A stretch of DNA of 11,597 bases from the UHGV virus genome UHGV-0331195; one strand, 5' to 3'. This document shows, piece after piece, positions 63 through 11,374 of this stretch (position 1 is the first letter of the stretch; the number at the start of each line of letters is the position of its first letter). The stretch is from a virus. The position numbers were made by a program, and so were the translations under genes. The notes under the pieces are model-generated. The model was not told the origin of the DNA and did no database searches. It worked only from the letters and a program-made list of their open reading frames with translations.

Positions 63-139
63 CGGCACGTAGCGCAGCCTGGTAGCGCACCGTCATGGGG
101 TGTCGGGGGTCGGAGGTTCAAATCCTCTCGTGCCGACCA
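63..139 (+). tRNA. proL: tRNA-Pro, anticodon GGG
   Basis: 77-nt cloverleaf: acceptor stem CGGCACG/CGTGCCG, D-arm GCGC-AGCCTGGTA-GCGC, anticodon loop ATGGGGT (GGG), T-arm GGAGG-TTCAAAT-CCTCT, 3' CCA encoded. Matches my recollection of enterobacterial proL. Confidence 0.9.
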
Positions 140-240: not shown

Positions 241-261
241 ATAAGCTATCAGCCGGATTTT

Positions 262-316
262 TTAGTTATACGTTTAGTTATACGGGCTGGCGTATAACTA
301 AAGCCGTATAACTAAA
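262..316. repeat. Integrase arm-type binding sites: TTAGTTATACG x2 direct (262-272, 274-284) and CGTATAACTAA x2 inverted (291-301, 306-316)
   Basis: Four copies of an 11-mer in a direct/inverted arrangement between the att core and int; the same 11-mer recurs twice at 11291-11313 near the other end. Confidence 0.6.
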
Positions 317-347
317 ACCCTGTTTTTTCGTGTGGAATCATAGACAT

Positions 348-1589
348 ATGGCGAGAAAAACACACCCATTAACCACAGTGCAGATCAAAGCAGCCAGACC
401 AGCGCAAAAGGAGTACACCCTGCAGGACGGCGGAGGGCTTTTTCTCCTGGTCAAACCGTCTGGATCAAAACTCTGGAGATTTTCCTACTACCGACCATCG
501 GACAAAAAAAGAATATTGCTGAGTTTTGGATCGCTTGAAGATGTTTCCCTGGCTGATGCCAGAAAACGCCGTAGCGAGTACAGGACGTTAATCAGTGCCG
601 GAACTGACCCGCAGGACCACGAGAGGCAAAAAAGAGAGACAGAGGCCCGAAGACAAGGGAACACGTTCGAAAATGTGGCGGCGGCATGGTACCAGGTGAA
701 AATCAGCCAGAATCTGGCCCCCAACACGATTAAAGACATCTGGCGTTCGCTGGATAAATATGTATTCCCGTTCATCGGCAACACGCCAATAGATACCCTC
801 ACCGCCCGAAGGTTCGTTGAAGTGCTTACCCCCATCAAGGAGCGCGGCAACCTGGAAACACTCAAGCGGGTTTTACAGCGCGTTAATGAGGTAATGGATT
901 ACGCCGCCAACAGTGGGCTGATTGATGCCAATCCGGCTATGAATGTGCGTAAGGCGTTTCCCTCACCTGTAAAAAAACATATGCCAACAATCCGCCCCGA
1001 ACAGCTGCCGGAGCTTATGCAGGCTTTATCAGTATCGGCAACAGAACGGCAGACCAGATTACTGATTGAATGGCAGTTACTGACCGTAACCCGTCCCGCC
1101 GAAGCGTCATCAACGCGGTGGGATGAAATCAACCTGGACGCGAAGCAATGGACGATACCTGCCGGACGCATGAAGATGCGCAGGGATCACGTTATCCCGC
1201 TTTCCGGTCAGGCTATGGCGGTGCTGGAGGCCATGAAACCAATCAGCCACCACCGCAATTACGTTTTCCCAAGTCTGAAAGACCCACAGCAGCCGATGAA
1301 CAGCCAGACAGCTAACGCAGCATTGCGGCGTATGGGATTCGCTGGCGTGCTGGTGTCTCATGGATTACGCGCCATATTCAGCACAGCAGCGAACGAGGAA
1401 GGATTCGAGCCGGACGTAATAGAGGCGGCACTTGCCCACGTCGACACCAACGAAGTTAGACGGGCATACAACCGGAGCAACTATATAGAAAAACGCATCG
1501 TGCTGATGCGCTGGTGGGGCGAATTTGTCGAGGCTGCGGCGACGGGCGTAACCCTCGCCAGTGGTAAAAGGGGTATCCGAGCCGTGTAG
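348..1589 (+). CDS. int: Tyrosine-type site-specific integrase, P4/CP4-57 family
   Basis: ORF 330-1589; start chosen at ATG 348 (MARKTHPLT...). N-terminus (PLTTVQIKAARP...YTLQDGGGLFLLVKPSGSKLWRFSYY) matches the arm-binding domain signature I recall for P4-type integrases; C-terminus has HGLR and RAYNRSNY catalytic-region motifs. Adjacent to a tRNA. Confidence 0.85.
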   Translation: MARKTHPLTTVQIKAARPAQKEYTLQDGGGLFLLVKPSGSKLWRFSYYRPSDKKRILLSFGSLEDVSLADARKRRSEYRTLISAGTDPQDHERQKRETEARRQGNTFENVAAAWYQVKISQNLAPNTIKDIWRSLDKYVFPFIGNTPIDTLTARRFVEVLTPIKERGNLETLKRVLQRVNEVMDYAANSGLIDANPAMNVRKAFPSPVKKHMPTIRPEQLPELMQALSVSATERQTRLLIEWQLLTVTRPAEASSTRWDEINLDAKQWTIPAGRMKMRRDHVIPLSGQAMAVLEAMKPISHHRNYVFPSLKDPQQPMNSQTANAALRRMGFAGVLVSHGLRAIFSTAANEEGFEPDVIEAALAHVDTNEVRRAYNRSNYIEKRIVLMRWWGEFVEAAATGVTLASGKRGIRAV

Positions 1590-1666
1590 CTGTACAGAAA
1601 ACCAGTAAAAACTACGAAAACCATGTAAAACCGTCGTATAATTGCATCAAATTTAACGACAAGGCC

Positions 1667-1918
1667 GTGAAACATGAAACCGTTAAGATGCAAAAAAATA
1701 TCAGATGCAATTGCGACGGGCTGCAACTGGCCCTGATGGTTCAGCATGAATTTTGGTCAACCTACGATCCGGAGGACAGAACGACGGCCCCATCAAAAAA
1801 ACAGGTAGTAGATTTTCTGGTATCCCGTGGCGCTTCCAGAAATCTGGCGGTAAGTATTGATAAGGTCGTACGTCCGGCATCTATGAAGATCGGAGGCAGG
1901 CCCAAAAAATGGCGGTAA
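1667..1918 (+). CDS. Small hypothetical protein, possible HTH DNA-binding protein or excisionase-like RDF
   Basis: 83-aa ORF (GTG 1667 or ATG 1688), C-terminal ...SIDKVVRPASMKIGGRPKKWR resembles the end of AlpA/Xis-type HTH proteins. Weak RBS; followed by a terminator. Position between int and alpA. Confidence 0.35.
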   Translation: MKHETVKMQKNIRCNCDGLQLALMVQHEFWSTYDPEDRTTAPSKKQVVDFLVSRGASRNLAVSIDKVVRPASMKIGGRPKKWR

Positions 1919-1924
1919 CAATCC

Positions 1925-1951
1925 TGGAAGCGGCAGAAATGCCGCTTTTTT
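1925..1951 (+). terminator. Rho-independent terminator (GCGGCAgaaaTGCCGC then T-run)
   Basis: Hairpin plus TTTTTTT immediately after the 83-aa ORF. Confidence 0.6.
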
Positions 1952-1981
1952 TATAATTCCATTTCAAATCATCAATATAAA

Positions 1982-2070
1982 AAACGGTGTATACCGTTTA
2001 AAAACGGTGGGAACTGTTTTTACCCATATCCGATGATTTACCGTATTTGTCACCGGAATACACCGGATTC
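1982..2070 (+). promoter_or_regulatory. alpA upstream control region: palindrome AAACGG-TGTATA-CCGTTT (1982-1999) and CACCG-N5-CACCGGATT copy B (2051-2070)
   Basis: Perfect 6-bp inverted arms with 6-bp spacer; the second element ends 15 bp before the alpA ATG and matches the copy upstream of int. Confidence 0.4.
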
Positions 2071-2085
2071 ACAAGGTAAATCACG

Positions 2086-2292
2086 ATGGAAGCAATCAGA
2101 AAAATTATCTTTCGCCAGGAAGTAAAAAAAATTATCCACATCAAGGCAGACAGCACGCTGCAAAGCATGATCAACGCCGGAGAATTTCCGCAGGGTTTTC
2201 GCGTTGGTTTACGCCGTCGCGGATGGTATGAGGATGATGTGTTGTCCTGGCAGAAAGAACGCGAAGAGGAAGCACGCGGAACGGCTGCTTAA
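2086..2292 (+). CDS. alpA: AlpA-family phage transcriptional regulator
   Basis: 68 aa; ...RQEVKKIIHIKADSTLQSMINAGEFPQGFRVGLRRRGWYEDDVLSW fits the AlpA pattern as I recall it (R..EV...ST.....G.FP...G.R..W.E..V..W). Same orientation as int, as in Gram-negative PICIs. Confidence 0.7.
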   Translation: MEAIRKIIFRQEVKKIIHIKADSTLQSMINAGEFPQGFRVGLRRRGWYEDDVLSWQKEREEEARGTAA

Positions 2293-2318
2293 CGGGTATC
2301 ACAGATATGACAAACACG

Positions 2319-2352
2319 AAAAAAGCGGCCCCGATATGGAGCCGCCTTTCTG
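2319..2352. terminator. Bidirectional hairpin GCGGC-ccccgatatgga-GCCGC; terminator for the minus-strand RHH transcript (T-run on minus strand)
   Basis: On the minus strand the hairpin is followed by TTTTTT; on the plus strand it follows alpA with only a weak T-tract. Confidence 0.5.
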
Positions 2353-2440
2353 AACAATTAACCCGCTGCGCCTTATGTGTATGTGATCCCAAACATAAGC
2401 ACGGGGATGATAGCCGCTATCAGGCTGGTGGGCAATGCAA

Positions 2441-2629
2441 TCAGTCTGGTTCAGTTCGTTGCCATACCTGCAATGAGCGCTTTTCCCTGTACTCTTTAAG
2501 GAATTGCTCAAGGGCAAAAGCACATGGTGCGAATCTTTCTGATTCATGCTCTATCTTTCTGCGCCGTCTTTTCCGTGCCGGTGATAATGTTTTGGTCAAT
2601 TCTTTATCGGTCATTGTGTTGTCCTGCAT
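2441..2629 (-). CDS. Small basic hypothetical protein, second gene of the RHH transcript
   Basis: 62-aa ORF (or 57 aa from ATG 2614) between the RHH gene and the minus-strand terminator; contains RKRRRRK. No clear RBS. Confidence 0.3.
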   Translation of the reverse strand: MQDNTMTDKELTKTLSPARKRRRRKIEHESERFAPCAFALEQFLKEYREKRSLQVWQRTEPD

Positions 2630-2671
2630 AGCAATGCGCCGTAATACCTCACACCACGGCGCTGATAGTGA

Positions 2672-2851
2672 TTATTCTGATTCTTTGGCCTTGCGGCGCT
2701 GGCGGCGTTTGATCTCGCCTTCAAGTGCCGAAACGATAAATTGCCCTGTACTTTCGCCATCTTCCTTTAAATTTTCTACAGCATCAGCTATTGCGTGTGG
2801 TACTCGAGCCTCAAGCTTTTTGGATTTTGCATTAACTGCTTTTGTTGCCAT
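2672..2851 (-). CDS. Ribbon-helix-helix (Arc/CopG/MetJ-type) DNA-binding protein, candidate island repressor
   Basis: 59 aa from ATG 2851 with RBS GAGGAAA 7 nt upstream on the minus strand. MATKAVNAKSKKLEARVPHAIADAVENLKEDGESTGQFIVSALEGEI matches the RHH beta-strand plus two-helix pattern. Divergent from the replication operon, with operator repeats between. Confidence 0.65.
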   Translation of the reverse strand: MATKAVNAKSKKLEARVPHAIADAVENLKEDGESTGQFIVSALEGEIKRRQRRKAKESE

Positions 2852-2872
2852 ATCTGATTTCCTCGTTATTAG

Positions 2873-2952
2873 GTGGCTGACAGTATACACACAAGAAAAC
2901 GGAAAAACACTATTGACGTGGCTGACACCCGTTACTAATATAGTGGCTGACA
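2873..2952. promoter_or_regulatory. Divergent promoter/operator: three direct GTGGCTGACA repeats (2873-2882, 2918-2927, 2943-2952) over a rightward promoter TTGACG (2913-2918), 17 nt, TAATAT (2936-2941)
   Basis: Three exact 10-mers within 80 bp; the middle copy lies in the spacer of a near-consensus sigma70 promoter facing the Icd-like/primase operon. A possible leftward promoter (TTGTGT...TAATAA on the minus strand) overlaps the first repeat. Confidence 0.55.
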
Positions 2953-3045
2953 CCTTTATTAAGGTAATCGATGAAAAGACAAAGCCCCGCAAGTGTCGTT
3001 ACCACTCGCAGGGCTTCTAACCAACAACGTAAACTAGGAGCCGTT

Positions 3046-3603
3046 ATGGTTGCTGTAAATCATATACCACACCTTGTACACACACAAACGGCCTTTGTGT
3101 GGCGTTTTCTGGCCCTGAATATCGGAGAAAAAAACCGCTTGATCGCCACCAGCAAAAATGGCTATGATTCCCGCGCACCTCATAAAACGGGTGTCGGGAT
3201 TAGCCTCCTGAAAACAACTGAAGCGCACAGCACGCGCCCCGCGTGTTTTTTTGTGCCGCATAGTCACACCTTATCAATGGTGGGCTGTACGGGGGCGGAG
3301 CAATCCGCGCCGGTTTCTTCAGTGTCCGGTAAGGCTAACCCTGTACAGTCCGCCACCAGCGAAATTAGCCTTTTGCGTGGCGGTTATCTTAACCACACTG
3401 AGGAGGCTGCCAACATGGCTACTATCCCTACCCTTGTACATTCTCAAACCGCATTTATCTGGCGCTTTATCATCTTTGGCGCGTCAGAATCTCAAATCAT
3501 CCACGTAACCGCCTGGACGGAACGCGAAGCGCGTAGCCGTTGCCCGTCCGGTTGTATTGCGGTATTCGCCGCCCGTATTCGTCAGGGGGTGTGCCATGCC
3601 TGA
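3046..3603 (+). CDS. Icd-like (host cell-division inhibitor family) ORF with in-frame tandem duplication; start uncertain (2971, 3046 or 3415)
   Basis: Single frame 2971-3603 with no stop. AGGAG RBS before ATG 3046. N-terminal motif LVHTQTAFVWRF recurs as LVHSQTAFIWRF at the second copy; degenerate TEAHSTRPAC versus TEREARSRCP. Confidence 0.4.
   Translation: MVAVNHIPHLVHTQTAFVWRFLALNIGEKNRLIATSKNGYDSRAPHKTGVGISLLKTTEAHSTRPACFFVPHSHTLSMVGCTGAEQSAPVSSVSGKANPVQSATSEISLLRGGYLNHTEEAANMATIPTLVHSQTAFIWRFIIFGASESQIIHVTAWTEREARSRCPSGCIAVFAARIRQGVCHA
3415..3603 (+). CDS. Icd-like protein, second and better conserved copy, 62 aa
   Basis: Strong SD GAGGAGG (3400-3406) before ATG 3415. MATIPTLVHSQTAFIWRFIIFGAS...TEREARSRCP...FAARIRQGVCHA fits my recollection of Icd-like small proteins in P4-like/PICI elements. 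Confidence 0.5.
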   Translation: MATIPTLVHSQTAFIWRFIIFGASESQIIHVTAWTEREARSRCPSGCIAVFAARIRQGVCHA

Positions 3604-3916
3604 TATGTCAAATTACCAGTACCTGATTAATCCGCATTTTAACTGTGAGCATGATATTGCTAAAAAAGTTTATTCCGCTGCGGATGGGGCTACTGACAAT
3701 ATATCAATGGGTGTTGCGTCAATTGGTAGCCTGATGTGGCATGCGTCAGAAAATAAGGAATATGACGAAAATACCATGCGCATTGATATGGGTAATATCG
3801 GTTTGTTACTGGCAATGCTTGGACATTTTGATATTTCGTTACGGTGCACCATTGAAAATGCCACAGATGCATTAAATGCTATAAAGAAAGCGAATACTGA
3901 TTCAAATCGGGGATAA
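3596..3916 (+). CDS. Hypothetical protein, 106 aa
   Basis: ATG 3596 overlaps the preceding stop (ATGCCTGA), RBS AGGGGG 6 nt upstream. No family recognised. Confidence 0.5.
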   Translation: MPDMSNYQYLINPHFNCEHDIAKKVYSAADGATDNISMGVASIGSLMWHASENKEYDENTMRIDMGNIGLLLAMLGHFDISLRCTIENATDALNAIKKANTDSNRG

Positions 3917-3922
3917 ATAATC

Positions 3923-4222
3923 ATGAGAACGTATTTATCTGGCTTTACTGCCAGCGGCCCCGCTCGGCCTGAAATCCGCCCCGGAGATATTTTCAGAGAT
4001 AACTACGGTGGCGTTGTTGAGATTAAAGGCGTGGCAGAACGGCGCATTACCTACCGCCGTGAAGGCTACGAATATGATTGCGTGATGCCTGTTTATCAGT
4101 TCCGGCGTGATTTTTCTCTGGTACAGGCAGCGCCCCGCAGTAAACCAACCAGCAGGGAGAAAGCACGCGCCAATATTCAGGAAATAAGAAAGATGTTGAA
4201 TGTATTCAGGGGTAAAAAATGA
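3923..4222 (+). CDS. Small protein, possible DUF4222 family
   Basis: 99 aa; PGDIFRDNYGGVVEIKGVAERRITYRREGYEYDC resembles the DUF4222 pattern I recall from P4-like prophages. Stop overlaps the primase start (ATGA). Confidence 0.45.
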   Translation: MRTYLSGFTASGPARPEIRPGDIFRDNYGGVVEIKGVAERRITYRREGYEYDCVMPVYQFRRDFSLVQAAPRSKPTSREKARANIQEIRKMLNVFRGKK

Positions 4223-5967
4223 AACTGGCACCGAACGTAAAAAAACAGCCACGCGGAATAAAACACAAAGACACAGAGGTAATTATCTTTGCGGGTAGTG
4301 ATGCCTGGTCACACGCGGAACAATGGCAGGAGCAGGATGGCCCCGCATCCGGCGATAATGTGCCGCCTGTGTGGCTTGGGCCAAATCAGCTTGCCGAACT
4401 TGATGCACTGAAAATTGTTCCGGATGGAAAAAAACGCGTAAGGCTGTACCAGGCCGGAGAACTGGATTTGGTGGAGACCAAAAAGATTGGTCAGAAGCTG
4501 GCGGCGGCAGATATTCAGGACGCAAATTTTTACCCCGAAGGAATGCACGTCCAGAAGTGTGAAAACTGGCGGCGCTATCTGAATGCTGAGCGTGAAAATA
4601 TTGCCGCAGGGCTTACCATGCCGGAGCAGAAAAATACGCAACTGGCACAAATGGCAGACAGTGAGCGCGCGCAGCTGCTTGCCGAGCGCTTTGATGGCGT
4701 TTGTGTACATCCGGAAAGTGAAATCGTTCACGTATGGCGCGGCGGGGTATGGTGTCCGATCAGCACAATGGAGCTGAGCCGCGAAATGGTGGCGATCTAT
4801 TCAGAGCACAGGGCCACTTTCAGCAAACGCGTGATCAATAACGCCGTTGAAGCGTTAAAAGTTATTGCCGAACCAATGGGGGAGCCGTCCGGCGATTTGC
4901 TGCCGTTCGCCAATGGTGCGCTTGACCTGAAAACGGGGGAATTTTCCCCGCACACGCCGGAGAACTGGATCACCACGCACAACGGCATTGAGTACACGCC
5001 ACCAGCACCTGGGGAGAACATCCGCGATAACGCGCCAAACTTTCATAAATGGCTTGATCACGCAGCCGGAAAAGACCAGCGCAAGATGATGCGTATATGT
5101 GCCGCGCTGTACATGATTATGGCGAACCGGTACGACTGGCAGATGTTTATTGAGGCCACCGGAGACGGCGGGAGCGGTAAAAGTACATTCACACACATCG
5201 CCAGCCTTCTGGCAGGGAAACAGAACACGGTAAGCGCTGAAATGACATCGCTTGATGATGCTGGTGGACGTGCGCAGGTTGTCGGGAGTCGTCTTATCGT
5301 CCTGGCTGACCAGACGAAATATACAGGCGAAGGAACGGGCATCAAGAAAATCACGGGCGGCGACCCCGTGGAAATTAACCCGAAATACGAAAAGCGTTTC
5401 ACGGCTGTAATCAGGGCGGTGGTGCTGGCGACCAACAATAACCCGATGATATTCACCGAACGGGCCGGAGGTGTGGCACGTCGTCGCGTGATTTTCCGCT
5501 TCGACAATATCGTCAGTGAGGCCGAAAAAGACAGGGAGCTACCGGAAAAGATTGCGGCTGAAATCCCTGTCATTATCCGCCGATTGCTGGCGAACTTTAC
5601 CGACCCTGAGAAGGCACGGGCTTTACTACTGGAACAGCGTGACGGTGATGAAGCACTGGCAATAAAGCAACAGACGGATCCGGTTATTGAGTTTTGCCAG
5701 TTCCTGAATTTTCTGGAGGAAGCGCGCGGCCTGATGATGGGTGGCGGTGGCGATTCAGTGAAGTACACGACCAGAAACAGCCTTTACCGCGTCTATCTGG
5801 CGTTTATGGCATACGCAGGCAGGAGCAAACCGCTAAACGTAAATGACTTTGGCAAGGCTATGAAGCCAGCCGCGAAAGTTTACGGACATGAATATATTAC
5901 GCGGAAAGTTAAGGGAGTAACGCAGACTAACGCAATAACAACAGACGATTGCGACGCGTTTTTATAA
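4219..5967 (+). CDS. Replication protein: P4-alpha-like primase / SF3 helicase
   Basis: 582 aa; Walker A GDGGSGKST (aa 315-323, nt 5161-5187) and Walker B-like RLIVLAD, consistent with the phage/plasmid primase P4-family C-terminal domain. Followed by an iteron origin. Confidence 0.75.
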   Translation: MKLAPNVKKQPRGIKHKDTEVIIFAGSDAWSHAEQWQEQDGPASGDNVPPVWLGPNQLAELDALKIVPDGKKRVRLYQAGELDLVETKKIGQKLAAADIQDANFYPEGMHVQKCENWRRYLNAERENIAAGLTMPEQKNTQLAQMADSERAQLLAERFDGVCVHPESEIVHVWRGGVWCPISTMELSREMVAIYSEHRATFSKRVINNAVEALKVIAEPMGEPSGDLLPFANGALDLKTGEFSPHTPENWITTHNGIEYTPPAPGENIRDNAPNFHKWLDHAAGKDQRKMMRICAALYMIMANRYDWQMFIEATGDGGSGKSTFTHIASLLAGKQNTVSAEMTSLDDAGGRAQVVGSRLIVLADQTKYTGEGTGIKKITGGDPVEINPKYEKRFTAVIRAVVLATNNNPMIFTERAGGVARRRVIFRFDNIVSEAEKDRELPEKIAAEIPVIIRRLLANFTDPEKARALLLEQRDGDEALAIKQQTDPVIEFCQFLNFLEEARGLMMGGGGDSVKYTTRNSLYRVYLAFMAYAGRSKPLNVNDFGKAMKPAAKVYGHEYITRKVKGVTQTNAITTDDCDAFL

Positions 5968-6781: not shown

Positions 6782-6787
6782 TCAACA

Positions 6788-6809
6788 GCCGGAGTAATCC
6801 GGCTTTTTT
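6788..6809 (+). terminator. Rho-independent terminator GCCGGAGtaaTCCGGC then T6
   Basis: Hairpin plus TTTTTT. Nearly identical to the terminator at 9064-9086. Confidence 0.65.
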
Positions 6810-6821
6810 GTACCCAAAAAA

Positions 6822-6858
6822 AGCCCGATAAGTACAGGAGGCATCTTATCGGGCTTTT
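6822..6858. terminator. Second, bidirectional terminator (AGCCCGATAAG...CTTATCGGGCT flanked by A-run and T-run)
   Basis: 11-bp stem hairpin with A7 upstream and T4 downstream; insulates the early/replication region from the head operon. Confidence 0.6.
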
Positions 6859-6891
6859 GCATATGAGGTTTTTTTTGGTGCACTGACACAC

Positions 6892-6990
6892 ATGATCGGG
6901 ATCATCATTTCATAATTTGCAACACAACTCAACATCATTGCATAAAATGCAATCATGATTATAATCATAACTGGATGAACATCCAGTTAT
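6892..6990 (+). promoter_or_regulatory. Head-operon control region: consensus -10 TATAAT (6959-6964) with TTGCAT -35 candidate (6938-6943), plus four palindromes
   Basis: Palindromes ATGATC-GG-GATCAT (6892-6905), TTGCAT-AAA-ATGCAA (6938-6952), ATGATTATAATCAT (6955-6968), ATAACTGGATG-AA-CATCCAGTTAT (6967-6990); the last sits at the expected transcription start. Confidence 0.5.
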
Positions 6991-7021
6991 GATTTTTTAA
7001 GTCAAAGAGGAATTTCTTACT

Positions 7022-7228
7022 ATGGCTGAAGAGAAAAAAGGCGGTGTTTCGGTGTACATAAGCCCCGACATCGTGAAGGCGCTCAAGGAACGCCACCAGC
7101 AGAACGTAAAAGCAGGCATTGCGGCAGGACTTGATCCGCTGGCGATGGTTGAGCCGTCAACAGGCTGGCAGGTACGCGCCTATTTACGCGCGGCGCTGGG
7201 TATGAATCAGGTTCACGGGGGTGAATAA
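7022..7228 (+). CDS. Small hypothetical protein, first gene of head operon
   Basis: 68 aa, RBS AAGAGGAA, stop overlaps the capsid gene start (TAATG). No similarity to lambda gpW, which has the same length, that I can see. Confidence 0.5.
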   Translation: MAEEKKGGVSVYISPDIVKALKERHQQNVKAGIAAGLDPLAMVEPSTGWQVRAYLRAALGMNQVHGGE

Positions 7229-8283
7229 TGACAGTAAAAGCAATAGCACTTAACACTAACCAGCTTTTTGCGTACCTGAATCGCGAGGATATTGCGGAAT
7301 TTAAATTCAGTCCGCTGTTTACCGCGCTGTTTTTCCCGAACGTGGCGACATTCAACACACAGGACATCATGTTAGATAACCTGGATATTGAAGAAGTCAC
7401 TATGTCGGCGTTTTGTTCGCCTATGGTGGGTAGCCAGGTTCAGCGCGATAAAGGGTACGAAACAAGCATTATTCGCCCTGGCTACACGAAGCCAAAACAC
7501 GAAATCGATCCATTAAAAACAATAATGCGCATGGCTGGAGAAGATCCAGCACAGCTTAACGACCCTACCTACCGCCGTATGCGCCTGATTACTGGCAACA
7601 TGCGCCGCCAGATAAACGCCATTAAAGCGCGCGTGGAATGGCTGGCGGTAAATGCGGTAACGACCGGAAAAAACATCATTGAGGGCGAAGGCATAGAGCG
7701 CTATGAAATCGACTGGAAGATACCGGAAAAAAACATCATAGAGCAGGCCGACGGTAAAAAATGGTCAGAGCAGGACAAAGACATACACGACCCAATCTAT
7801 GACATTGAGCTATACGCAGATCAGGCAGGTTGCCCCGCAAACGTCATGATTATGGGCGTTGATGTATGGCGCATGTTACGCAGCTTTAAAAAATTCCGTG
7901 AACTGTACGATCTCTCCCGTGGTTCAGAATCCGCCGCAGAGCTGGCATGTAAAAACCTGGGCGAAGTGGTGAGCTTTAAAGGCTATCTTGGTGATCTGGC
8001 CCTTATCGTCTATTCCGGCAAATACACTGACAGCGACGGCACAGAAAAATATTTCCTTGAGCCTGATTTGCTGGTCCTGGGCAACACCAACAATAAAGGG
8101 CTGGTGGCCTATGGTGCGATTATGGAACAGGAAGCGGTAAGAACGGGCGCAACGCAAAACATGTTTTACCCGAAAAACTGGATTGAGGACGGCGATCCGG
8201 CGATTGAGTACGTGCAGACGCACAGCGCACCGCAGCCGGTTCCGGCAGATATTCGCAAATTTGTTACCGTCAAAATTGGTTAA
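7228..8283 (+). CDS. Major capsid protein, phage lambda gpE family (divergent)
   Basis: 351 aa. Shares with recalled lambda gpE: FKF(S/D)PLF...LFF, (T/R)PGY(V/T)KPKHE, EDP..L.DP.YRR.R.I..NMR, WS..DK...DP..DIE.YA, RSFK, RGS.S, LG..VS(F/Y)KG..GD.A.(I/V)VYSG.Y, LVLGNT...GL..YG, .YPKNW...GDPA.E, SAP. Estimated 35-45% identity. Confidence 0.85.
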   Translation: MTVKAIALNTNQLFAYLNREDIAEFKFSPLFTALFFPNVATFNTQDIMLDNLDIEEVTMSAFCSPMVGSQVQRDKGYETSIIRPGYTKPKHEIDPLKTIMRMAGEDPAQLNDPTYRRMRLITGNMRRQINAIKARVEWLAVNAVTTGKNIIEGEGIERYEIDWKIPEKNIIEQADGKKWSEQDKDIHDPIYDIELYADQAGCPANVMIMGVDVWRMLRSFKKFRELYDLSRGSESAAELACKNLGEVVSFKGYLGDLALIVYSGKYTDSDGTEKYFLEPDLLVLGNTNNKGLVAYGAIMEQEAVRTGATQNMFYPKNWIEDGDPAIEYVQTHSAPQPVPADIRKFVTVKIG

Positions 8284-8295
8284 CGGGGGGATTCT

Positions 8296-8631
8296 ATGGA
8301 CACTCCATACATTGAGTTATTTGCAGGCAGTCAGCAGGTATCCACGACGCTGGTACATTTTGCCGCTGATGCTGGCGTTATTCAGGAATTTACCCCGCTG
8401 ATGCTGGCGGACAATGGCGAGTTTAAGCCGTGGGATGGTCAGGAATCTGGCAAGGCTGTTTATCTGACTTCGTACCCCGTGGACACGTCAAAGCAGAAAT
8501 CAGCACAGTGTTACAAGACGGGGATATTTAATATCGCCGCCGTAAACTGGCCTGAGAGCGCCGACACTGACGCGAAAAAATGCGCCGCCTTTGCGGGTTC
8601 TGGCGTATCCGTTCAGCCGCTGGCGCGATAA
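8296..8631 (+). CDS. Head decoration protein, lambda gpD family (divergent)
   Basis: 111 aa; TPLMLADNGEFKPWDG...YKTGIFN...VNWPESADTDAKKCAAFAG...SV parallels recalled gpD (TPLMLD...WDG...YKSGTF...VLWPEA..DETKKRTAFAG...SI). Gene order E then D is the reverse of lambda. Confidence 0.7.
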   Translation: MDTPYIELFAGSQQVSTTLVHFAADAGVIQEFTPLMLADNGEFKPWDGQESGKAVYLTSYPVDTSKQKSAQCYKTGIFNIAAVNWPESADTDAKKCAAFAGSGVSVQPLAR

Positions 8632-8643
8632 GCAGGGGAAACG

Positions 8644-9057
8644 ATGGCAACGAATGAAAGCATCATGGCGCTACCGCTGGCGAGTAAATTTAAAGCAGAA
8701 GCGCGGGCAATGGCTGACAGAGGTTTATCAACCTACGAGGCCGTATATCAACTCAACAAACTGGAAGAACAGGACAAGCCGCGCGCTGATGCGATTATGG
8801 CGCTTCATGAACATAACGACTATCAGCCGCTGTTACGTGCAATGGCAAACGTGCCATGTATTAGCGTCGATAATGCTCGTGAAATCCTGAACATGACCAT
8901 AGAGCAGGAGCGCCCAAAGGTTGCACCAGAGCTTACCGCAGCCTTTGAAAACTTTATGGACATGCACAGCCCGCAAGCCGTATCAGCTGGCATGGCGTAC
9001 GATGGCAGAAACCAGGGCGATGACGGCGACATCGATCGCATACTGAAAACCATCTGA
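8644..9057 (+). CDS. Hypothetical head-module protein, 137 aa, acidic C-terminus
   Basis: RBS GGGGA 5 nt upstream. No convincing similarity to lambda FI/FII/W from memory. Confidence 0.5.
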   Translation: MATNESIMALPLASKFKAEARAMADRGLSTYEAVYQLNKLEEQDKPRADAIMALHEHNDYQPLLRAMANVPCISVDNAREILNMTIEQERPKVAPELTAAFENFMDMHSPQAVSAGMAYDGRNQGDDGDIDRILKTI

Positions 9058-9063
9058 GACAAG

Positions 9064-9086
9064 GCCGGAGAAATCCGGCTTTTTTT
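9064..9086 (+). terminator. Rho-independent terminator GCCGGAGaaaTCCGGC then T7, immediately before cosQ
   Basis: Hairpin plus TTTTTTT; 22 of 23 nt identical to the terminator at 6788-6809. Confidence 0.65.
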
Positions 9087-9088
9087 AC

Positions 9089-9262
9089 GGGTCCTTTCCG
9101 GCATATGGACCCGTTACGGGGCGGCGACCTCGCGGTTTTTCGCTATTTATGAGCCTTTTCAGGGGGGTGGTGGTGGTTTTGTTGTTTGATCTATCTTTAT
9201 GAATGAAAAGGGAAAGATGCAAGCAATACACCAACCTGAAGCAGTAATTAAGTTGGTGTATT
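9089..9262 (+). other. cos site 1 (lambda-type): cosQ-like GGGTCCTTTCCGG (9089-9101), cosN 12-nt cohesive-end sequence GGGCGGCGACCT (9119-9130), divergent cosB region with hairpin AATACACCAAC/GTTGGTGTATT (9225-9262)
   Basis: CGTTACG|GGGCGGCGACCTCGCGG-TTTTCGCTATTTATGA matches my memory of the lambda right-end/left-end junction for about 35 nt, then diverges with no CGTTTCC-type R elements. Sits directly upstream of the Nu1-like gene, as in lambda. Confidence 0.75.
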
Positions 9263-9263
9263 A

Positions 9264-9806
9264 ATGAAATCTCATCTGATGAACAAAAAAAACATGGCGA
9301 AAAGCTGCCGTGTAAGTGCGACAGCGTTCGACAAGTGGGGAGTAACTCCCGTTGAGCGTAAAGGCCGTGAGGCGTTTTATGATGTTGCCAGCGTGATAGA
9401 AAATAGGGTTAACAATGCAATTAGCCAGCTTATAAACGACAAAGGCGAGATTGACGATGATGAACTTTTACGAGTCAGGATCAGATTACTGACAGCACAG
9501 GCAGAGGCGCAGGAACTTAAAAACGATCGCGATCGCGGTGACGTGATTGATACTGAGTTTTGCCTGTACGCGCTTTCAAAGCTGGCGAGTCAGATTTCAT
9601 CAATCATGGACAGCCTCCCGCTTACTATGCAAAGGAGCTTCCCACAGATTACCCCCGCCATGCTGGATAGGCTTAAAAGGGAAGTGGTTAAAGCCTGTAA
9701 TGCCAGTGCCAGAGTTGCCGACAACCTCCCACAGATACTGGCTGATTACTTGAAAGAAACAACCGGAAACGTACCGGAAAAGTTGCTACAGAAGAAAGGC
9801 GAGTAA
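9264..9806 (+). CDS. Terminase small subunit, lambda gpNu1 family; start uncertain (9264, 9279 or 9294)
   Basis: C-terminal two-thirds LLTAQAEAQELKNDRDRGDVIDTEFCLYALSKLASQISSIMDSLPLTMQRSFPQI...LDRLKREVVKACN closely parallels recalled Nu1 (LTRAQADAQELKNARDSAEVVETAFCTFVLSRIAGEIASILDGLPLSVQRRFPEL...FLKRDIIKAMN). N-terminal DNA-binding region is much more divergent. Confidence 0.8.
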   Translation: MKSHLMNKKNMAKSCRVSATAFDKWGVTPVERKGREAFYDVASVIENRVNNAISQLINDKGEIDDDELLRVRIRLLTAQAEAQELKNDRDRGDVIDTEFCLYALSKLASQISSIMDSLPLTMQRSFPQITPAMLDRLKREVVKACNASARVADNLPQILADYLKETTGNVPEKLLQKKGE

Positions 9807-9824
9807 CAGACGCGCAATTATTGA

Positions 9825-10030
9825 ACAAAACTGAGAAACGACATGAAAGCGTCATAAATCGCCATTTTAGATGATTACCGTGTCGTTTCTTTTTATTGTG
9901 TATCTATTTAAAAACAAATAGTTATGTTCGAGAAGTACCGACATGCTTTTTCCAGAAAAATTTTCATAAACAGATAAAAACCGCGAGGTCGCCGCCCCGT
10001 AACGGGCCATAATTCCAGGAAGGACCCGAC
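9825..10030 (-). other. cos site 2, inverted: cosQ-like (9998-10030), cosN GGGCGGCGACCT on minus strand (9986-9997), lambda-like cosB with R-type elements GAAACGACA (9835-9843) / TGTCGTTTC (9882-9890)
   Basis: The reverse complement of 9825-10030 aligns with the recalled lambda left end over about 170 nt (cosN, TTTATGAAAATTTT, CTTCT.G.ACATAACT..TGTTTTTA..TA, AAAAAGAAACGACA, TGTCGTTTC). 31 nt around cosN are identical to cos site 1 in inverted orientation. cosB abuts the terS stop tail-to-tail. Confidence 0.7.
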
Positions 10031-10061
10031 GACACCAGACTATCAGAACGATGGGGGCACA

Positions 10062-10343
10062 ATGACAGAAGCCGAAATACTGGGATTAATCCGCCGCGTT
10101 GCCGGAATCAGCCAGCAGGTTGACGAACAGGCCACGCAGCCGGACAGCGTGACCGCTGAAAATTATGCGCGTGTTGTTGCGGAGGTGATGCGCCGTGATG
10201 GTATAGAACTTAATGGCGTGGATATGCGCAACATACGAACCAGAGTTCTTGAGTTGCTGGCCTACCGTCGCCGCGTGGAGATGTATCGGGAGAAGGAGAA
10301 AATAACGTACCACTGGAAGAAGCCGGAGCGGTTGCGGCGGTAA
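10062..10343 (+). CDS. Hypothetical protein, 93 aa
   Basis: ORF with GGGGG 5 nt upstream of ATG; Arg-rich C-terminus. No family recognised. Confidence 0.45.
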   Translation: MTEAEILGLIRRVAGISQQVDEQATQPDSVTAENYARVVAEVMRRDGIELNGVDMRNIRTRVLELLAYRRRVEMYREKEKITYHWKKPERLRR

Positions 10344-10903
10344 CTGGTTGATATTCCCGACGGACCAAAAATGGGTGGCTACATCCCTCGCTTCTGAGGA
10401 CTGTTAACAAGCTGCCTGAAAGACAGTCACAAACTACGAAATTTTCGCAGTTTAATTAATGATCAGCTTAATCGCTAACCCGCTGATATTTTCGGAAACC
10501 TCAATTTGAGGAAGTCGGCGCGGTAACTCGCTGAACTTTAAGCAAAGCGCAAAATTGCGCTTGCTGAATAATCATTATGATTACGCAGATGATTAAGGAA
10601 TGACCGAAGGCGGAAATTCGCCTGTGGTTAATGGGGGAGTTGCAGATCTGCAACTCGACCATGAAACTACGGAAACTACCCGTAGTTTGGGTAGTAAGAG
10701 TAACACCCAGATTTTGGGGCTTACTCGTGATACCCAAATTTGGGGTATCGGTGGCAACCATAACGACTTTCGTTACGGTTGATGCTTTTACCCCATTGGT
10801 GGAGGCTGGGCGGCCTGCTGTGGGCTTTTCCACCATTGGTGGAAAGGTGCAGATCTGGATCATCATTACGGTGATCAAGGGTATGTAAAACCCACCAGCC
10901 TGA

Positions 10904-11146: not shown

Positions 11147-11290
11147 CAGGCGTAAATCCCGATATGGTGATCCCCATATCGGGGAACATCCACCAGCTTA
11201 AAAACGAATGAGCGAAAAAAATCCAGGTAGAATTATGGAAGTCGCTAGGGCAATCGCCGTTTAAATTGTGTATTTTTTCAGCAAATTATT

Positions 11291-11313
11291 TTAGTTATAC
11301 GTTTGGTTATACG
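11291..11313. repeat. Integrase arm-type sites near attR: TTAGTTATACG (11291-11301) and TTGGTTATACG (11303-11313)
   Basis: Same 11-mer as at 262-284, about 60 bp from the attR core. Confidence 0.55.
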
Positions 11314-11374
11314 GTTTAAAAGTTGAATCGATAATATTGATTAAAATCATACTGTTACACGCTCAATTAAACTA

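Follow-up and report, generated by a model that had tools for sequence, protein, structure and literature searches.

Three small conserved genes in the late region of an EcCICFT073-family PICI, one of which encodes a putative scaffolding protein homologue

What are the small unassigned genes that lie among the capsid and terminase genes of a phage satellite? The stretch analyzed here, referred to in the following as the window, is an 11,597-nucleotide sequence (UHGV virus genome UHGV-0331195) with three such genes, for proteins of 68, 137 and 93 amino acids. The original prediction placed all three at exactly the positions found by us, all of which are on the plus strand (Table 1), and was right in recognizing a packaging module of a satellite that contains small unassigned genes. 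A RefSeq genome 99.9% identical to the window annotates the three ORFs as hypothetical-protein CDSs.

The window is an ≈11 kb E. coli PICI satellite of the EcCICFT073 family at tRNA-Pro, inserted between yejM and narP, and represents the variant of this family with a Nu1-like TerS in place of Rpp. Its gene content comprises an integrase, an HTH regulator, a DUF4222 protein, a D5-type primase, PerC, gpE, gpD and Nu1. DUF4222 is the Pfam family annotated on RgdR-type proteins of such islands (PMC3378721). The sequence features by which Gram-negative PICIs are recognized were all found: the integrase gene lies at the left end, there is a specific att site, and the size (11 kb) is within the range of ≈10–20 kb; the element has an AlpA-type HTH regulator (positions 2086–2292, from the annotation of the matching genome), a primase/replication gene (D5_N/DUF5906 by Pfam, 4219–5967) and co-oriented genes, all on the plus strand; and cos1 and cos2 have phage-like cosN sequences and are accompanied by TerS. 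Parts of the module were matched in 2217 of 5426 complete genomes. Overall, the system is an ordinary one that is largely known already, to which our analysis adds a single useful new annotation.

Table 1. Positions of features in the 11,597-nucleotide window.
Feature	Position	Strand	Details
tRNA-Pro	63–139		attL-side repeat downstream
attL-side direct repeat	249–285	+	37 nt, 84% identity to 11278–11314
Integrase gene	330–1589		Left end, beside tRNA-Pro, after attL-side repeat
Two terminator-like hairpins after perC	6787–6858	+	Hairpin 6787–6804 with T-run; perfect inverted repeat 6819–6832/6845–6858
Putative sigma-70-like promoter	6938–6965	+	TTGCAT–16 nt–TATAAT, upstream of 68-aa gene; predicted from the sequence
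Palindrome/hairpin	6963–6994	+	14–15 bp, perfect, followed by T-run; overlaps –10 element; 27 nt before 68-aa start
68-aa orphan	7022–7228	+	PHROG 3255; first cistron of capsid operon
gpE-like major capsid protein	7228–8283	+	Pfam Phage_cap_E, E = 2.7e-48
gpD-like head decoration protein	8296–8631	+	Pfam HDPD, E = 1e-17; 37% identity to lambda D
137-aa putative Nu3/gp6-type scaffolding protein homologue	8644–9057	+	Stand-alone gene; PHROG 1999; c1501 orthologue
Intrinsic terminator	9064–9085	+	GCCGGAGAAATCCGGCTTTTTT; ends capsid operon; 95% copy of perC terminator
cos1	9088–9159	+	cosN GGGCGGCGACCT (lambda orientation); precedes terS; inverted repeat I1
Nu1-like small terminase (TerS)	9264–9806	+	Pfam Phage_Nu1, E = 3e-23; slot held by Rpp in EcCICFT073
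cos2	9957–10028	–	Inverted cos1 copy; 72-nt inverted repeat, 82% complementary; also carries GGGCGGCGACCT
93-aa orphan helical protein	10062–10343	+	PHROG 1561; basic C-terminal tail; c1505 orthologue
attR-side direct repeat	11278–11314	+	Repeat family D2; element ≈11.0 kb

The three small ORFs are real, conserved core genes of this well-studied E. coli PICI family. Their EcCICFT073 orthologues share the gene order and are 99% (68-aa), 93% (137-aa) and 85% (93-aa) identical in sequence, and the order 68-E-D-137-[Rpp or TerS]-93 was constant in all eight E. coli contexts (8/8). Among 80 IMG/VR loci, intact copies were present in 77 (68-aa gene), 79 (137-aa gene) and 60 (93-aa gene). All three are under purifying selection. 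In the module, pN/pS ratios ranged from 0.10 to 0.35, with 0.26 for the 137-aa gene and 0.27–0.35 for the 93-aa gene; the frame antisense to the latter (c1506 in the original CFT073 annotation) gave 1.5–1.8. For the 68-aa gene, comparison with Pluralibacter yielded a pN of 0.26 and a pS of 0.78, about equal to the decoration gene. A sequence search of the PDB with the 68- and 93-aa proteins returned only unrelated proteins (best E 0.61–0.85), and the 137-aa query had no match there. None of the three matched any PADLOC model, and the PDB search showed no similarity to Rpp structures, so that an identity as Rpp or anti-phage defence proteins was not supported.

The 68-aa gene, the gpE-like capsid gene, the gpD-like decoration gene and the 137-aa gene form a four-gene operon, in that order. 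The capsid protein is 43% identical to lambda E and 45% identical to E of the CFT073 helper prophage, and the operon would amount to a coherent shell-building set, ≈37–45% identical to its phage counterparts. The element has no portal, protease or large terminase gene.

Primers from the published EcCICFT073 work, mapped onto the ORFs, identified c1501 as the 137-aa gene and c1505 as the 93-aa gene. For EcCICFT073, induction by helper phage, packaging and transfer have been demonstrated (PMC6092414), and phi80 still transduces islands lacking c1498–c1501 and c1504–c1507 (PMC10530653, PMC10460865); none of the three genes is needed for phi80 transfer of the orthologous island in the laboratory. 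Deletion of c1499 or c1500 caused no phenotype (PMC6092414), and islands with cas9 or melA in place of c1498–c1501 were still transduced (PMC10530653, PMC10460865). Together with a capsid gene that is split in one Pluralibacter island and partial or stop-containing in four of the 80 IMG/VR loci, these observations could mean that the whole operon, the 68- and 137-aa genes included, is a functionless remnant of captured head genes, a space-filling "adaptable module". We consider this very improbable, since the four operon genes are intact in 75–79 of the 80 loci (gpE in 75, gpD in 79), have pN/pS ratios of 0.10–0.26, and since 68-E-D is retained over three genera at 57–66% protein identity, with the identical 1-nt overlap in Salmonella and Pluralibacter. 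The published EcCICFT073 markers (c1501::tetA, c1499::cat and c1498–c1501::cargo) all disrupt the capsid operon. With every published marker located in the module or removing part of it, it may be that capsid size has never been measured with the operon intact.

According to the original prediction, the small proteins matched none of the lambda head accessory proteins. This held for the 68- and 93-aa proteins, as far as testable, but not for the 137-aa protein, whose sequence is homologous to the scaffolding protein of lambdoid phages (lambda Nu3, phage 21 gp6). The prediction had named clear homology to ordinary lambdoid head-completion proteins as evidence against it, and for this protein a clear match of that sort, to a regular lambdoid head protein, was found. 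Phages encode the scaffolding protein within the prohead protease gene C, as its C-terminal part nested in frame; the lambda record has nu3 nested in C, with the annotation "capsid assembly protein". The 137-aa protein matched PHROG 53, "head maturation protease", at profile positions 494–567 of 583 (E = 7e-10), and its tblastn hits lay at the very C-terminal end of the gpC homologue of Gifsy-1, the record of which refers to phage 21 GP5 as a protein that "contains scaffold protein GP6". Its best similarity was to the last repeat and tail of gpC from the natural helper of CFT073 (family HMM E = 1e-9; 37% identity over 83 aa by blastp), whereas the match to lambda gpC itself was not significant by BLAST. 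Like Nu3/gp6, the protein has the repeat motif xIMAL..E......LA..P.(M/I)(S/T)V..AR.IL and a C-terminal AF..FM..HSP tail, and its gene adjoins D and E homologues. The homology is thus to the C-terminal scaffold domain of gpC.

Several features set the 137-aa protein apart from Nu3/gp6. It is encoded by a stand-alone ORF of 414 nt that has its own start, 12 nt downstream of the gpD-like gene, and not from an in-frame start inside a protease gene; a terminator, cos1 and 206 nt separate this ORF from terS. The protein has a unique N-terminus of 44 aa, which showed no significant similarity to anything, and only one significant repeat, whereas gpC has three both in Gifsy-1 and in the helper prophage of CFT073. 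The scaffold gene comes after E and D in the PICI (E-D-scaffold), but before them in the phage (scaffold-D-E). At the same position, Salmonella and Pluralibacter PICIs encode products of 68 and 77 aa, and the Pluralibacter gene had no demonstrable relationship to the 137-aa gene (E = 37). Some copies of the 137-aa protein are labeled "phage head-tail connector protein" in RefSeq; this label is explained by gpC of phage 21, which was historically named head-tail preconnector.

Within the procapsid, the C-terminal domain of the 137-aa protein would bind the capsid protein that the island itself encodes, and the 137-aa protein would help to assemble island-encoded shells on the portal and protease of the helper, to be removed afterwards as Nu3 is. 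An alternative is that it acts as a decoy that mimics the capsid-binding C-terminus of the helper gpC/Nu3 and competes for capsid protein with the scaffold and protease of the helper, redirecting or poisoning helper capsid assembly, as SaPI CpmB mimics the C-terminus of the 80alpha scaffold. The closeness to the end of the natural helper's gpC fits such a role, a smaller shell would suit an element of just 11 kb, and the deep allelic dimorphism of the neighboring 68-aa protein hints at helper-specific interactions. However, when genes were expressed singly from pBAD18, c1501 and c1505 had no effect on lambda plaques, which were reduced only by c1503 (rppA) (PMC6739421), and EcCICFT073 DNA packaged by lambda was phage-sized (PMC6092414). 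As the island has its own capsid protein, a cognate scaffold is the simpler reading, and we regard the decoy as unlikely. Helper interference, which the original prediction considered for the small proteins, is thus disfavored by the lambda plaque results with c1501 and c1505; given the Nu3/gp6-type homology, a role of the 137-aa protein in capsid assembly stays plausible, and one in capsid size is possible.

The original prediction also had the small genes translationally coupled to, or immediately flanking, the capsid and terS genes. The stop codon of the 68-aa gene and the start codon of the capsid gene share one base (TAATG), an arrangement kept in Salmonella and Pluralibacter, suggesting that the two genes are translationally coupled. 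The 93-aa gene, on the other hand, starts 255 nt after terS, beyond the inverted cos2, and is therefore not coupled to it.

Upstream of the 68-aa gene, the two hairpins after perC are both kept in CFT073, Pluralibacter and Salmonella. In the putative promoter, TATAAT and TTGC are invariant among four PICIs from three genera, although a consensus promoter scanner made no call at this position. The palindrome that follows has, as RNA, a fold-energy z-score of –4.7. Among 25 variants, three pairs were changed on both sides and G-U wobbles were tolerated; the covariation score exceeded that of all 500 shuffles. The CTGGAT half-site cores were invariant. The palindrome may be an operator or a terminator.

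The 68-aa protein is predicted to form a β-hairpin and two helices (pLDDT 74), and occurs as two deeply diverged alleles with identical first 15 residues. A match to lambda gpW was rejected on profile similarity (hhalign probability 0.3%). Most likely, the protein is a small partner in the capsid module, which would act as an assembly cofactor or an operon regulator. In a more specific version of the latter, it would be a ribbon-helix-helix (RHH)-type autoregulator acting on the promoter palindrome, like a CopG-type protein or antitoxin heading its own operon. Its gene is the first cistron, directly after a perfect palindrome that overlaps the –10 element; the protein has an N-terminal strand motif, GVSVYISPDIVKALKE, followed by the two predicted helices; the N-terminus is shared by both alleles; and the half-site cores are invariant. 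Nevertheless, Pfam, NCBIfam and PDB sequence searches yielded no RHH family, nor was there a β-α-α match to Arc, MetJ or CopG, and the confidence of the structural model is only moderate. The half-site spacing differs by genus (3, 4 and 6 nt), and the tolerated G-U-type changes fit an RNA hairpin better than an operator. We therefore doubt that the 68-aa protein is such an autoregulator, and favor the broader assignment as a capsid-module partner.

The region between the capsid operon and the 93-aa gene has the two cos sites on either side of terS. The cos1 sequence, described for EcCICFT073 (PMC6739421), matched a phage record at 95.8%, and cos2 matched the phage 21 cos region at 90%. TerS, which shares 36% identity with lambda Nu1 and is best conserved in the C-terminal half, alternates with Rpp in the same slot among related loci. 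The 93-aa protein is very widespread (1027 clusters at 90% identity), and in a capsid-forming PICI (cf-PICI) from Shigella an 87% identical homologue is encoded 13 nt downstream of TerL. Its place after cos2 here and directly after TerL in the cf-PICI suggests a satellite backbone or late accessory gene, outside the capsid operon, and not a lambda-type head gene; profile comparison gave no support for lambda gpFI (hhalign probability 0.5%), which was rejected. The right end of PICIs is often home to immune systems. Since the 93-aa gene lies at this end, where accessory genes sit in PICIs (PMC6092414), it could encode a helper-interference or anti-phage factor. This appears highly unlikely, considering that c1505 alone did not reduce lambda plaques (PMC6739421), that PADLOC gave no match, and that the position is fixed in two PICI lineages and not variable like that of cargo. 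A backbone or late accessory gene is the more probable assignment.

Compared to known satellites, the window is closest to EcCICFT073 (Fillol-Salom et al. 2018, 2019), which has c1501, c1505 and an unannotated 68-aa ORF between c1498 and c1499 at the same positions, and shares with it the genes for the capsid and decoration proteins, both of the inverted cos sites, and the promoter region. The two differ in that EcCICFT073 has RppA where the window has Nu1-like TerS, and in that the right end of EcCICFT073 abuts phoQ. The cf-PICIs of the EcCIEDL933 family likewise encode their own capsid genes, and one such element has the 93-aa homologue at the end of its packaging module. They carry a full HK97-type set of capsid, S78 protease, portal, connectors, HNH, TerS and TerL, whereas the set in the window is limited to a lambda-type capsid, a decoration protein, the putative scaffold and TerS. 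Among the SaPIs, CpmB of SaPI1/SaPIbov1 is a satellite scaffold mimic and Ccm of SaPIbov5 a satellite capsid homologue. As in the window, a packaging operon of the satellite encodes, beside terS, small proteins or capsid homologues with relatives among the head proteins of the helper (reviewed in PMC6893505); in sequence, the two groups are unrelated. CpmB and Ccm have been shown to redirect capsid size, while no size redirection was seen with the E. coli islands (PMC6092414).

Overall, the window is probably best described as an EcCICFT073-family PICI in which the three ORFs are conserved late-region core genes that do not belong to one functional class. A bolder suggestion, which we put forward with considerable doubt, is that the 68 aa–gpE'–gpD'–Nu3' operon is a working minimal shell module, placing the "classical" E. 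coli PICIs between capsid-stealing and capsid-forming satellites. If so, the portal and protease of a suitable helper would carry island-built shells, which might be smaller than T=7, suiting an 11-kb genome, and the dimorphic 68-aa protein would be a helper-specific or size-determining cofactor. The published negative results would then be explained by the marked islands having a disrupted operon and by only lambda and phi80 having been tested in detail.

These results give three "hypothetical" genes a better annotation, in a module carried by thousands of E. coli genomes. The capsid genes of this module have usually been dismissed as phenotype-less, and the standard marked EcCICFT073 derivatives interrupt the capsid operon. 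With the putative scaffold homologue recognized, the module would be a nearly self-sufficient shell-building set that is kept intact by selection, which sharpens the question of whether the classical PICIs of Gram-negative bacteria ever make capsids of their own.

The genes of the window are co-oriented, and the ORF map shows an integrase beside tRNA-Pro, a small HTH regulator, a DUF4222 protein, a D5-type primase, an 87-aa ORF and PerC. The late block runs in the order 68-aa ORF, gpE-like capsid, gpD-like decoration protein, 137-aa ORF, Nu1-like TerS and 93-aa ORF. Fillol-Salom et al. (PMC6092414, PMC6739421) described the same organization for Gram-negative PICIs, and the late block of the prototype, EcCICFT073, matches that of the window except that RppA stands in for TerS. 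In E. coli DETEC-S792, the stretch between yejM/tRNA-Pro and narP is 99.9% identical to the window region, and the three small ORFs are labeled by RefSeq as hypothetical proteins. Of 5426 complete E. coli genomes, 2217 carry parts of the late block. The element, its genes and their dispensability have already been published, and the evidence best supports a reading in which the three ORFs are core genes conserved in a known satellite family and fall into two different units.

Main features of the element and their positions in the window
Feature	Position	Length	Remarks
att direct repeat	249-285 and 11278-11314	37 nt	bounds the ~11-kb element
DUF4222 protein	3923-4222	99 aa	upstream of the primase, overlapping the primase start
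perC to 68-aa gene	6787-6994		three terminator-like hairpins
68-aa ORF	7022-7228	68 aa	+ strand
137-aa ORF	8644-9057	137 aa	+ strand
Inverted cos sites	9088-9159 and 9957-10028	72 nt	82% complementary; flank terS
93-aa ORF	10062-10343	93 aa	+ strand
Direct repeats	10784-10843		ORF-poor ~0.9 kb from the 93-aa gene to attR

The direct repeats downstream of the 93-aa gene (GCTTTTNCCNCATTGGTGGA) are also present in CFT073. When species-representative genomes were searched with highly specific peptide patterns, 106 and 161 stretches were matched, of which 0 and 1, respectively, were confirmed by tblastn; many copies of the element may be masked or unreadable in that collection. DUF4222 is the Pfam family to which the RgdR-type proteins of these islands are assigned; RgdR, a small regulator known from the islands, is a type III secretion regulator first described from O-island 51 (PMC3378721). 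RgdR has an RGD motif, whereas the DUF4222 protein of the window has RPGD there. An RgdR/DUF4222 identity for the three small proteins was rejected, as none of them matches DUF4222 in Pfam.

All three ORFs were present at the predicted positions, and selection and conservation mark them as real genes. The 68-, 137- and 93-aa proteins are 99%, 93% and 85% identical, respectively, to their EcCICFT073 orthologues. Between the window and EcCICFT073, pN/pS was 0.26 for the 137-aa gene and 0.35 for the 93-aa gene, and the latter gave 0.27 against its Shigella copy. The antisense ORF c1506, placed across the 93-aa gene in the original CFT073 annotation, had a pN/pS of 1.5–1.8. For the 68-aa gene, comparison with the Pluralibacter copy yielded a pN of 0.26 and a pS of 0.78, resembling the decoration gene. 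Among 80 IMG/VR loci, chosen as those holding the 137-aa gene, this gene and the decoration gene were each intact in 79, the 68-aa gene in 77, the capsid gene in 75 and the 93-aa gene in 60, several of the losses of the 93-aa gene falling at contig ends. That the capsid operon is a decaying remnant is the less likely reading.

The original prediction had the three genes translationally coupled to, or immediately flanking, the capsid and terS genes. This holds for the 68-aa gene, whose stop codon overlaps the capsid ATG (TAATG), with an equal overlap in the Salmonella and Pluralibacter islands; its conserved C-terminal HGGE codons are the site of the ribosome-binding site of the capsid gene. 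Only 12 nt separate the decoration gene from the 137-aa gene, which is parted from terS by an intrinsic terminator, cos1 and then a 206-nt gap. The 93-aa gene is not coupled to terS: it lies 255 nt past it, on the far side of the inverted second cos site (cos2). Between the cos sites of otherwise near-identical islands, a 180-aa Nu1-like TerS alternates with a 144–146-aa Rpp, and judging from the sequences, TerS/Rpp looks like a cassette that is swapped between the inverted cos repeats.

The identity of the island capsid protein is 43% with lambda E and 45% with the E protein of the natural helper; that of the decoration protein is 37% with lambda D, and that of TerS is 36% with Nu1, conservation being strongest in the C-terminal half. 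The capsid, decoration, scaffold and small terminase proteins of the island therefore form a coherent set with similar degrees of divergence, whereas a portal, a protease and a large terminase are absent. In a Shigella capsid-forming PICI and a Pluralibacter classical PICI (loci L006, 80-901, and L008, 6207-7260), the capsid gene is in two ORFs and the adjoining small genes are intact.

Upstream of the operon, the first two of the three successive hairpins come after perC, and a conserved TTGCAT-16-TATAAT motif precedes the 68-aa gene. The third hairpin, a perfect palindrome of 14–15 bp with a T-run, overlaps the −10 element (the conserved TATAAT). In 25 sequence variants of its stem, three pairs were altered on both sides and changes of the G-U type were tolerated; covariation exceeded that in all 500 shuffles, and one pair was broken in 10 of the 25. 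The spacing of the CTGGAT/ATCCAG cores varies among genera. The palindrome is a candidate RNA terminator or a candidate operator. Compared with phage late-promoter regions, the promoter region showed no similarity.

None of the three proteins matched Pfam, NCBIfam or PADLOC, and no significant PDB hit came from sequence searches with either single sequences or family profiles. The 137-aa protein belongs to PHROG family 1999 (unknown function) and has a second match (E = 7e-10) to positions 494-567 of the 583-position profile of PHROG 53, "head maturation protease". In tblastn searches of phage records, it matched the C-terminal 70 residues of the Gifsy-1 "prohead protease; Lambda gpC homolog", whose record note cites phage 21 GP5, which "contains scaffold protein GP6". 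The gpC homologues of Gifsy-1 and the CFT073 helper prophage have three C-terminal repeats (xIMAL..EA.G.E.LA..LA..PGM(S/T)V..AR.IL) and then a tail (...AF..FM..HSP...GG). An HMM built from the 137-aa family matched these two proteins with E-values of 7e-10 and 1e-9, respectively, computed with Z set to one million, in an alignment covering the three repeats and the tail; by blastp, the identity was 37% over 83 residues. The lambda counterpart of this region is the nested nu3 gene, annotated as "capsid assembly protein". When the 137-aa protein was compared directly with lambda gpC by BLAST, the match was not significant; the homology emerges only with profiles and with gpC proteins of the phage 21 and Gifsy types. 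For this protein, the earlier view that it matches no lambda head accessory protein is thus not upheld, and c1501-type proteins, named for the EcCICFT073 orthologue, can on sequence grounds be newly assigned to the Nu3/gp6 scaffold family.

The demonstrable homology is limited to residues ≈45–137, the N-terminal 44 residues being without it. A second scaffold repeat in the N-terminal half had no statistical support, and a 77-aa Pluralibacter protein encoded at the position of the 137-aa gene was not supported as a homologue; the Salmonella protein from that position has 68 aa. Natural 93-aa variants of the protein (P0027, P0029 and P0031) lack residues 21–64, with breakpoints at a repeated RAMA motif; these residues were apparently lost by recombination between the two motifs. 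Some members of the cluster are named "phage head-tail connector protein". No NCBIfam model backs this name, which probably goes back to "head-tail preconnector", as phage 21 gp5 was formerly called.

With this homology, anatomy and conservation, we infer an assembly role: the 137-aa protein would be the scaffold of an island-encoded lambda-type shell module, of which the 68-aa protein would be the translationally coupled first cistron. That the 137-aa protein instead serves as a scaffold decoy is less likely.

The 68-aa protein had no family, structural or phage homologue in Pfam, NCBIfam, PADLOC, PDB or tblastn searches; tblastn with the 68- and 93-aa proteins against 50,697 phage records gave no convincing phage homologue. 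Lambda gpW, also 68 aa long, was rejected as its ancestor by hhalign, as was gpFI for the 93-aa protein. An AlphaFold2 model of moderate confidence has a β-hairpin and two helices. The sequence and the operon anatomy make an RHH autoregulator attractive, but fold searches give this reading no support, and it is less likely. The IMG/VR loci (L019–L098) hold two alleles of the gene, with 69% protein identity, a dimorphism that is new. Both share the first 15 residues and a common upstream region, and they assort independently of TerS/Rpp type and capsid allele. Allele B had a pN of 0.17 and a pS of 0.38 against the window, compared with a pS of 0.13–0.20 for flanking genes in the same loci, or about twice their synonymous divergence.

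The 93-aa protein is very common (1027 clusters at 90% identity) but narrow taxonomically: when 1.8 billion representatives were searched with HMMER, no more than 36 clusters were recovered. Two giant matches, to ankyrin and SEA repeat proteins, were dismissed as artefacts. The model has three helices and a conserved basic tail (Y.WKKPERLRR), and a fold search with it gave no match. The protein sequence is identical behind TerS-type and Rpp-type cassettes. In a Shigella element with an HK97-type capsid, S78 protease, portal, connectors, HNH, TerS and TerL, a homologue starts 13 nt after TerL. The 93-aa gene is thus a backbone gene common to classical and capsid-forming PICIs rather than a lambda-type head accessory; its presence in the latter is a new observation. 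In the window, the 93-aa protein would be a separate late or backbone gene.

The original prediction also pointed out that, in other satellites, small proteins so placed are factors for helper interference or capsid size. We mapped published primers onto the CFT073 sequence. pBAD18-c1501 carries the 137-aa gene and pBAD18-c1505 the 93-aa gene in sense orientation, c1506 being the antisense ORF. Among the published clones, c1503 (rppA) alone reduced lambda plaques, and the c1501 and c1505 clones left them unreduced (PMC6739421). Interference by the 137- and 93-aa proteins is thus disfavored for lambda by direct experiment and is the less likely reading. The 68-aa protein has never been expressed alone, because the c1499 clone begins within its ORF, which is unannotated in the original CFT073 record.

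The c1504-07::cat replacement takes out cos2 and the 93-aa gene, and the island still transfers well. A check primer for c1497 falls in the 87-aa ORF, so the most probable identity of c1498 is perC, and islands with c1498-c1501::cas9 or ::melA, also combined with c1504-07::cat, therefore lack all three genes. The c1498-c1501::cas9 and ::melA islands remain transduced by φ80 ΔcosN (PMC10530653, PMC10460865). The first marked island was c1501::tetA and the second c1499::cat, and the packaged DNA was reported to be phage-sized (PMC6092414). In the EcCICFT073 derivatives of the papers cited here (L005, the CFT073 locus, 463-3655), the markers c1501::tetA, c1499::cat and c1498-c1501::cargo lie within the capsid operon, and c1504-07::cat eliminates cos2 together with the 93-aa gene. 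With markers inside the operon, capsid size was therefore, according to the published text, assessed with the capsid operon interrupted, a caveat of marker position that is new. The advance is modest, with one clearly testable question.
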